From Eledone cirrhosa (Eukaryota), in NCBI GenBank assembly GCA_964016885.1, contig CAXHJY010000427.1, positions 1 to 64,000 of the forward strand: a stretch of 64,000 nt of DNA, given 5' to 3'. The notes below the pieces were generated by a model. The model ran no database searches, was not told the origin of the DNA, and saw only the letters and a list, made by a program, of their open reading frames with translations. The first letter of the stretch is position 1. Every line of letters begins with the position of its first letter. Both the position numbers and the translations under genes were made by a program. Positions 5,178 to 63,529 of this stretch are shown here, one piece after another.

Positions 5178-5213
<36 letters not shown>

Positions 5214-5215
<2 letters not shown>

Positions 5216-5400
5216 AACCAGTAAGACCCCGACGGCTGAGCTCAAGCCGTTTCGACGGCTAATTCTGGACTAATTAGCCGTCGAAACGGCTTGAGCTCAG
5301 CCGTCGGGGTCTTACTGGTTCCTATTACCCACTCTACTACCCTAAGTATTGAGTACTTTGGTGCGTTATGGTCCACCTGGTTCCTTACCACATTTCCCTC

Positions 5401-5402
<2 letters not shown>
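5214..5402 (+). mobile_element. Family A hairpin element
   Basis: Inverted short arm + long arm with GAAACGGCT-loop-AGCCGTC; (TA)n both sides. Confidence 0.85.
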
Positions 5403-5447
<45 letters not shown>

Positions 5448-5803: not shown

Positions 5804-6206
5804 AAGTCGATCGATCCTTTATATATATATATATTGAAAGTTAGTTAGAAATATCCAAGCGTAAGAGCACTCAGTCCATAGGATGAGTTTAGTATAAATA
5901 ATTACATCAGTGAGATAAAGTGGTACTTAAGTGTCGTTGGATTCTGGATCCCAACTCATTCAGCCTGTCATAAGAAAAATGAGAATAAAGATGGCCGCCT
6001 AGGGTTGATATATTCCTCAAAGGAAGGCACAATCAAACCCTAGGCGGCCATCTTTATAGTTATTTGCAGCGATTCTTTGCTTAAACTTTAATCTGTTCTT
6101 ATAATAAATATTTGCTCTACGGGTTTATATATATATATATATATATAGAAATAATAATAAAATAAGGGTGAAAGCAGCGATTCTTTGCTTAAACTTTAAT
6201 CTGTTA

Positions 6207-14643: not shown

Positions 14644-14689
<46 letters not shown>

Positions 14690-14690
<1 letters not shown>

Positions 14691-14890
14691 GGAGGAAATG
14701 TGGTAAGGAACCAGGTGAACCATAACGCATCAAAGTACTCAATACTTAGGGTAGTAGAGTGGGTAATAGGAACGAGTAGGATCCCGACGGCTGAGCTCAA
14801 GCCGTTTCGACGGCTAATTCTGGACGCAAATTGAGTCCAGAATTAGCCATCGAAACGGCTTGAGCTCAGCCGTCGGGGTCCTACTCGTTC
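14690..14890 (-). mobile_element. Family A hairpin element
   Basis: As above, long arm on minus strand; (TA)n both sides. Confidence 0.85.
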
Positions 14891-15129: not shown

Positions 15130-15175
15130 TTACATAAATCTTTCGTTGCACATCTGCAACATCGTCAGTGGTGTT
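15130..15175 (-). ncRNA. Hammerhead core in the Penelope pseudo-LTR (family D)
   Basis: CTGACGA t gttgca-gatg-tgcaac GAAA about 265 nt after the ORF stop; stems I/III pair poorly in this copy. Confidence 0.6.
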
Positions 15176-23904: not shown

Positions 23905-23970
<66 letters not shown>

Positions 23971-24048
23971 CAGATTAAAGTTTAAGCAAAGAATCGCTGC
24001 TTTCAACCTTAATATATAATAATGTCCATAACACTTTTATATATATAT

Positions 24049-24163
24049 AACGAAGGAAATGTGGTAAGGAACCAAGTGGACCATAACGCACCAAAGTACT
24101 CAATACTTAGGGTAGTAGAGTGGGTAATAGGAACAAGTAAGACCCCGGGGTCTTACTTGTTCC

Positions 24164-24165
<2 letters not shown>
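24049..24165 (-). mobile_element. Family A element, perfect palindrome at the predicted cleavage site
   Basis: ...ggaacaagtaagacccc|ggggtcttacttgttcc; (TA)n both sides. Confidence 0.85.
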
Positions 24166-24210
<45 letters not shown>

Positions 24211-32369: not shown

Positions 32370-32743
<374 letters not shown>

Positions 32744-40684: not shown

Positions 40685-41040
40685 ATATGCAGTTATTAGA
40701 TGCAGAATTTTTGGAATGTTTTACATATTTTTACTGTTACATACATACATGTAACAGTAAAAATATGTAAAACATTCCAAAAATTCTGCTTCTAATAACT
40801 GCATATACACTTGTACATATAGAAAGCACATGCACACATACAACTCAAAACATACATATCCACACATACAATAACATGCATACCTGCACACACATGCATA
40901 CATATCTACCTAGTTGATGTTGTGTAAATTCCAATGAGAGAGTCATGTGTATATGTTAGAAACCGACTCTCTCTTTATTGGTAAAAATTTGTGAAATTAT
41001 AAAACCAGAAGAACATACATTCATACATATATACATACAT
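40685..41040 (+). repeat. Interspersed repeat with terminal palindrome (40685-40807); second copy at 13745-14012
   Basis: Shared ctaataactgcatatacacttgtaca...catatctacctagttgatgt...gaaattataaaaccagaagaa. Confidence 0.75.
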
Positions 41041-53232: not shown

Positions 53233-53512
53233 ATAGTTCACTTGAAGCATTGTGTAATGAGGTATAAACGTTTGCATATGTATAATAAAGCCAAAACAAT
53301 GCAGGTATGGACATAGAATAAAGAATGCAAATGCAAAAGATATTGTTGTCAATTAGTCTTTTACCTTAGATTAAATAAATCTAAGGTAAAAGACTAATTG
53401 TCAACAATATCTTTTGCATTTGCATTCTTTATTCTATGTCCATACCTGCATTGTTTTGGCTTTATTATACATATACAAACGTTTATACCTCATTACACAA
53501 TGCTTCAAGTGA

Positions 53513-63033: not shown

Positions 63034-63036
<3 letters not shown>

Positions 63037-63208
63037 CGAAGGAGGTGTGGTAAGGAACTAGATGGACCATAAGGCGCCAGAGTACTCAATACTTAGGGTA
63101 GTAGAGTGGGTAATAGGAAAATGTTTAACCCGGCTATTTCTGGACCCGAGTTCAGAAATAGCCATCGAAACGACTTTAGCTCTGCCGTCGGGGTTAAACA
63201 TTTTCCTA
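63034..63208 (-). mobile_element. Family A hairpin element (subfamily variant)
   Basis: Long arm ends ...ttaaccc then stem ggctatttctggac/gttcagaaatagcc, GAAAC...GTC ggggttaa. Confidence 0.8.
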
Positions 63209-63298: not shown

Positions 63299-63337
<39 letters not shown>

Positions 63338-63340
<3 letters not shown>

Positions 63341-63495
63341 AGTAAGTAAGACCCCGACGGCTGAGCTCAAGCCGTTTCGACGGCTAATTCTGTACTGTCG
63401 GGGTCTTACTTACTCCTATTACCCACTCTACTACCCTAAGTATTGAGTACTTTGGTGCGTTATGGTCCACCTGGTTCCTTACCACTTTTCATTCG

Positions 63496-63497
<2 letters not shown>
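63338..63497 (+). mobile_element. Family A hairpin element
   Basis: Short inverted arm runs to stem II then jumps to gtcggggtc. Confidence 0.8.

Positions 63498-63529
<32 letters not shown>

Follow-up and report, generated by a model that had tools for sequence, protein, structure and literature searches.

Penelope-like elements of the EN+ Hydra clade (Craig et al. 2021, PMC8557442) have in common with the repeat family described here, family A, a C-terminal GIY-YIG endonuclease, a DKT motif, a CxCX5C linker and insertion into (TA)n and, as far as the available text of that paper describes them, an inverted truncated copy, a one-sided tail and a hammerhead ribozyme in the pseudo-LTR. The formation of the inverted structures of Penelope elements is called unresolved in the same text. 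A promoter in the pseudo-LTR is known for Drosophila Penelope (PMC2377424), and for the hammerheads of metazoan Penelope elements the accessible part of PMC4209133 states that there is no in vivo evidence. The PAc element nicks and extends both target strands and initiates at two internal sites, while ribozyme cleavage was dispensable for its insertion in vitro and no RNA-seq reads ended at the cut, according to the portion of PMC11167929 available. In R2, untemplated bases are attributed to run-off of the reverse transcriptase at the RNA end, and the junctions mirror the ribozyme cut (PMC3774820, in part).

Here we analysed a short family A copy whose two arms meet head to head at the predicted cut of such a hammerhead. 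We read it, with a probability of roughly 70% and judging from sequence comparison, as a two-armed stub in (TA)n that derives from a Hydra-type Penelope-like element and whose reverse transcription probably had as its template the 3' fragment of an RNA that had cut itself. A single copy of this kind is insufficient to prove cleavage, and the weight of the argument rests on the population of copies in the genome.

The focal stub and related copies in the window

The focal stub (24049-24166) has one arm of 98 nt and one of 20 nt and lies within (TA)n; the window, here and below, is the whole 64-kb stretch of DNA that was analysed. Its parts are as follows.

24039..24048, no strand: left (TA)n target flank
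24049..24146, minus strand: long arm, the element 3' end, which starts with the first base past the predicted cut (24146) and runs to the tail end (24049)
24049..24126, minus strand: one-sided tail of about 78 nt, on a single arm only
24146..24147, no strand: junction, blunt and head to head, at the site of the predicted hammerhead cut
24147..24166, plus strand: short arm, starting likewise at the first base past the predicted cut and running to a fixed internal end point
24167..24189, no strand: right (TA)n target flank

The preliminary description of this locus had reported a palindrome, gacccc/ggggtc, at 24146/24147, and the 20-bp arms 24127-24146 and 24147-24166 indeed form a perfect palindrome with this centre, which far exceeds what chance would give and does not stem from a simple repeat. 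Its statements that other family A copies read GAAAC-stem-loop-GTC/GGGGTC on the sense strand, and that the focal copy lacks everything 5' of GGGG, were likewise borne out. The long arm has an exact full-length match in 36 of the 40 genome copies scored, the focal one counted, and we infer that the tail of about 78 nt lies between two start sites of reverse transcription. An alternative reading of the blunt junction, with a 2-nt CG overlap, leaves the breakpoints ambiguous by one base, and taken alone the focal copy may have arisen by deletion.

Besides the focal stub, the window holds eight family A copies, among them the following.

5211..5403, no strand: majority class, turning near the inferred transcription start
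14686..14890, no strand: majority class, with an 8-nt junction insert
32478..32685, no strand: majority class, a perfect palindrome centred at 32540/32541
63035..63208, no strand: related copy with an internal deletion, not of the cut-site class
63336..63500, no strand: short arm reaching the inferred start, long arm beginning 3 nt before the cut

The copy at 63034-63208 had been put forward as a second example of a turn at the cut site, a claim that fails: the junction at 63131/63132, one base from the cut, is a 27-nt internal deletion in the long arm, and the copy in truth inverts some 40 nt upstream of the cut, at 63145-63148, as most copies do.

Other repeats are present nearby. The TA tract of the focal stub also contains a short high-copy stub of another family (23967-24012), which recurs at 6130-6205 of the window and also abuts one of the loci collected (L083). 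Near-perfect fold-back elements at 53300-53450 and 40702-40789 have no relation to family A. In addition, canonical CTGANGA-stem-GAAA motifs occur in other repeat families at 15168 (minus), 19465 (plus), 24820 (minus) and 35235 (minus), and these four are probably pseudo-LTR hammerheads of further Penelope-like elements.

The parent element and its predicted hammerhead

Searching the 3.0-Gb genome (1,796 contigs) with the upstream sequence of a longer family A copy returned paired inverted matches. Long copies are arranged in the order inverted truncated copy, pseudo-LTR, a frame with reverse transcriptase (RT) and C-terminal GIY-YIG, and pseudo-LTR with tail; in three loci (L076, L077 and L078) a single frame encoding RT together with a GIY-YIG endonuclease at the C-terminus lies between the pseudo-LTRs, and all three frames contain stops or frameshifts. 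Reading their translations by motif, we found DKT in place of DKG, a CxCX5C linker, and CxxC and CxH near the C-terminus, and RWR stands at the N-terminal position of the RWK motif of the Hydra clade. Insertion into (TA)n, the inverted truncated copy and the one-sided tail are all present. Pfam and PDB searches with the parent protein returned no family and no match, respectively. The fit to the Hydra clade follows from the agreement of DKT, CxCX5C, CxxC, CxH and the TA target with the definition in the available text of PMC8557442, and by these motifs family A is assigned as the pseudo-LTR end of a Hydra-type Penelope-like element. The stubs correspond to the last 60-135 nt of the pseudo-LTR and carry the tail on one arm only in 91 of 92 two-armed copies.

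Several further observations concern Penelope-like sequences in this genome. A piece of reading frame in one copy (L024) had been considered as the parent and was rejected, as it belongs to a different Penelope-like family. In three copies (L010, L017 and L154) the short arm carries one and the same single mismatch near its internal end point, which may reflect either an error that recurs at priming or another variant of the source. The genome also harbours a second Penelope-like family that is very abundant (L032-L036; 25,712 candidates at first look), with low-complexity insertions between RT and nuclease. Finally, at L037:2845-6564 (minus strand) an open frame of 1,240 codons holds an in-frame fusion between a LINE-type RT and the C-terminal portion of a Penelope-like RT and GIY-YIG nuclease, probably a chance chimeric insertion.

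The long copies are predicted to contain a full type I hammerhead with a U3-A8 core variant and a covarying stem II. At 86 nt upstream of the cut they read ACCCC, then TTGANAA, then a strand able to pair with the one before GAAA. Our search required the invariant core bases, and 57 distinct long copies fitted; among these, positions 3 and 8 are T-A in 53, C-G in two and mixed in two, and position 7 is free (T in 35, C in 16, G in six). The expectation that an upstream CTGANGA would accompany a stem I was right about the stem, which in long relatives is complementary to GGGGT, but not about the core, which is TTGANAA, with the canonical C3-G8 pair in just two of 57 copies. The literal CTGANGA is absent from both strands of two full-length young copies, an absence that we ceased to treat as refuting a ribozyme once the U3-A8 form was recognised. 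Two older-subfamily long copies (L175 and L176) have the canonical C3-G8 core, showing that the family has undergone a switch at the 3-8 pair.

Pairing was examined in 24 aligned copies that we chose from the long copies. Pairing cells amounted to 86.6%, versus 25-46% in slid controls, and changes on both sides were seen at four pairs, namely three of stem II and the 3-8 pair. These changes trace back to a small number of events passed on to many copies. In stems I and III the variation is confined to one side, and two of five covariation measures were not above shuffles. In a divergent subfamily, the compensatory change in the 5' strand of stem II was predicted beforehand from the altered 3' strand and was then found. 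Neither the window nor six long copies gave a hammerhead match when scanned with Rfam, which the long loop II (about 40 nt) likely explains. Stem III has 5-6 bp, and a monomer is therefore plausible. The ribozyme fold with all three helices is predicted to make up 16-35% of the ensemble for three young copies, 61% for an older one and 1% or much less for three others, and a competing hairpin is the lowest-energy predicted fold in two young copies.

Two inversion points across the genome

Most copies turn upstream of the cut. Counted over the whole genome, 13,443 junctions fall upstream of GAAAC within a 30-nt centre. For the first 30 tailed arms passing the site, the end lies 35-45 nt upstream in 18, at 12-28 nt in eight, beyond 112 nt in four and at 46-112 nt in none, bearing in mind that arm-end extension in this set can overshoot by a few bases. 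From a set of 52 junctions, seven of the older subfamily that had no matching reference were excluded; in the 45 young-subfamily junctions with centres of at most 45 nt, the longer arm ends at 40-45 nt in 35 and never beyond 46 nt. The main inversion edge thus falls 41-45 nt before the cut, within loop II, at an Inr-like pair (TCATT/TCAGT) that in young copies stands 26-30 nt after a TATA-like box; the AGT of the pair is kept while the rest of the loop diverges. These motifs resemble the Inr and TATA consensus, and it seems likely from their placement that transcription starts inside loop II. A cap-copy signature at the upstream edge was weak and was not used (untemplated C after the start in five of 30 arms, T in none of 30).

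A second, much smaller class turns at the predicted cut itself. Exactly blunt junctions at the cut number 94 genome-wide (control, 0) and short-centre junctions 613 (control, 35); anchoring on the tailed arm gave 318 matches with centres of at most 20 nt versus 10,507 arms passing the site. By hand count, both arms end within 1 nt of the cut in about 71 of the 100 matches listed, and they do so in 22 of the first 30 short-centre copies (20 by script and two point-mutated ones by eye). Overall, the cut class comprises about 2-3% of copies, that is, a few hundred stubs genome-wide. In the older subfamily the peak is weaker, with about 13 of 31 short-centre matches set against 1,657 passing arms, or less than 1%. 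At 30 loci whose long arms are identical to the focal one, the focal copy alone turns at the cut, a sample too small for a class of 2-3%. The preliminary description had anticipated a peak of inversion points at GTC/GGGG; a sharp class with untemplated bases does exist there, but it is not the main point, the bulk turning 35-45 nt upstream.

One could suppose that the cut-class copies are palindromes of the start class whose centre was later deleted, or trimmed at integration, with the C-run and G-run as a hotspot. Microhomologies of CG and CGG would fit the blunt junctions and those with a 3-nt centre (the latter 14 of the 100 matches listed), and hairpin-mediated deletions do occur in family A, at about 12 of 49 sites examined in addition to the copy at 63034. 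However, where both arms end at the cut around an insert of 1-5 nt that begins with A or T, we counted 157 strand hits, versus five for the same design placed 6 nt upstream; these correspond to about 88 sites, scaled from 56 sites in the 100 matches listed, at which both arms reach the cut with an untemplated insert and without microhomology, and the share of the cut class is not higher in the older subfamily. Later deletion is therefore improbable as the origin of the class, and it may explain some individual copies, the focal one included. The insert is a single A or T at 33 of the 56 sites listed, and mixed inserts made purely of A and T read A then T in six of seven. Single-base spacers are A or T in 13 cases and C or G in two, so that CpG decay does not account for them.

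If the class does reflect a real RNA end, the ribozyme need not be its source: the RT might have stopped at a hairpin, a nuclease of the host might have acted, or GGGG might be a minor site of transcription start. The competing hairpin mentioned above would fit such a reading. In an RNA initiated at the inferred start, however, the bases flanking the cut on either side are predicted to be paired, and this helix continues 4-5 nt past the site, so that a structure stop would fall 4-5 nt downstream of the cut; there is no Inr-like motif at GGGG, and the end matches to the base the predicted cut of an independently conserved hammerhead. We consider these other sources about as doubtful as later deletion. 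Untemplated bases at one fixed base, together with a structure stop predicted elsewhere, thus make it likely that two RNA 5' ends, the start and the cut, fed family A. That the peak instead stems from one short stub amplified as a unit is hardly credible: many long arms of the cut class are nearly identical, as such a founder would give, yet the junction inserts vary among copies and the class is found in four arm variants, with varied flanks, as well as in the older subfamily.

Formation of the stubs and comparison with known systems

These two likely RNA 5' ends can be accommodated in a scheme that we regard as quite probable. RNAs starting at the Inr-like motif in loop II would lack the 5' half of the ribozyme and would not cut themselves, giving rise to most stubs, while an RNA reading through a whole pseudo-LTR, for instance at the 3' end of the mRNA, would allow the ribozyme to fold; the 3' fragment released by cleavage would retain both priming sites and might yield the class of 2-3%. 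Several features weigh against this explanation of the focal stub, namely the CG overlap at its blunt junction, the weaker peak in the older subfamily, the mixed folding predictions, the Rfam miss, the two covariation measures no better than shuffles, the failure of the supposed second example and the small size of the class.

As for the joining of the arms, each of the two nicked target strands would prime its own cDNA, at the tail end in one case and at the internal site in the other, usually with a single RNA as template for the two; these cDNAs would run off the RNA 5' end, often gaining A residues, and would then be joined head to head, whether through a template jump from end to end or through end joining. 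We favour this joining of two target-primed cDNAs with some reserve, on account of spacers of 0-1 nt that are too tight for a fold-back, inserts that read A then T and so fit two A-tailed ends, arms of mixed variants and a foreign piece. The alternative for this step, which likewise starts from a cleaved RNA, is that one cDNA folds back and copies itself into the mirror arm. Matching arm variants within 82 of 92 copies would agree with such self-copying, although they indicate equally that mostly one RNA is involved, and some inserts are copies of short stretches of the arm, as an abortive snap-back would leave. A hairpin loop needs at least 3 nt, however, and the blunt and 1-nt spacers that dominate fall below this minimum; the mixed inserts are mostly A then T, and some copies (L138, L148 and L026) have arms of different variants. 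A further copy (L024, at G000:C4:65458070-65458600) has some 350 nt from the reading frame of another Penelope-like family lying between its family A arms, which suggests a template jump between RNAs. Self-copying of a single cDNA is thus conceivable and rather unlikely. The earlier proposal, in which the template RNA was self-cleaved and then copied back, accordingly divides: a cleaved template is likely in view of the cut-class counts, whereas copy-back by a single cDNA is unsupported, given the 0-1 nt spacers and mixed-variant arms. Taken as a whole, the proposition that a few hundred independent germline insertions were templated by the 3' product of the hammerhead, that a start within loop II leaves only read-through RNA able to cut itself, and that inverted ends arise by head-to-head joining of cDNAs is tentative, and we would put it slightly short of even odds.

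Junction counts from one genome can thus address both hammerhead cutting in vivo and the formation of inverted ends. Such counting might serve as a cheap, genome-only assay for other hammerhead-bearing families, for which whole-genome counts are needed because a class of 2-3% is invisible in a few dozen copies. In addition, a start located within the ribozyme hints at a simple switch by which the 5' end of the mRNA would be spared and its 3' end cut.

A search of titles and the beginnings of abstracts, with supplements and most subscription papers outside its scope, found no report of Penelope inversion points at the cut. In comparison with the Hydra-clade elements, whose tail measures 30-40 nt, that of family A is longer at about 78 nt, and family A comprises more than 10,000 stubs with two defined inversion points, while the available portion of PMC8557442 draws no link between inversion and the ribozyme cut. 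With the hammerheads of metazoan Penelope elements (Cervera and de la Pena 2014, PMC4209133, in part) the predicted ribozyme has in common the type I form, a short stem I, a long stem II, G10.1-C11.1, U3-A8 and the location in the pseudo-LTR; it differs in its stem III of 5-6 bp and in a loop II of about 40 nt that holds the likely start. The PAc Poseidon element studied in vitro (Frangieh et al. 2024, PMC11167929) resembles family A in two internal priming sites that define the tail, in the nicking and extension of both strands and in an AT-rich target, but unlike in the PAc data available, a minority of the genomic insertions of family A begin exactly at the predicted cut. In this respect family A is similar to R2 with its HDV-like ribozyme (Eickbush et al. 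2013, PMC3774820, in part), where 5' junctions also reflect the cut and carry untemplated run-off bases; the R2 cut, however, makes the 5' end of the full element, whereas the cut in family A would free a short 3' fragment that ends as an inactive palindromic stub.

The animal non-LTR retrozymes (bioRxiv 10.64898/2026.07.22.740005, in part) are, like the stubs, non-coding, related to pseudo-LTRs and likely moved by a Penelope-like protein. They consist of tandem units, in contrast to the inverted pairs of family A with half a ribozyme or none, and we rejected the reading of the focal stub as such a retrozyme, since it lacks a ribozyme core and forms one inverted pair instead of tandem units with whole ribozymes. 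Thus, the type of stub, the tail and the hammerhead were already known from these systems, and what family A likely adds to them is a minority signal of probable cleavage in vivo together with a probable transcription start within the ribozyme.
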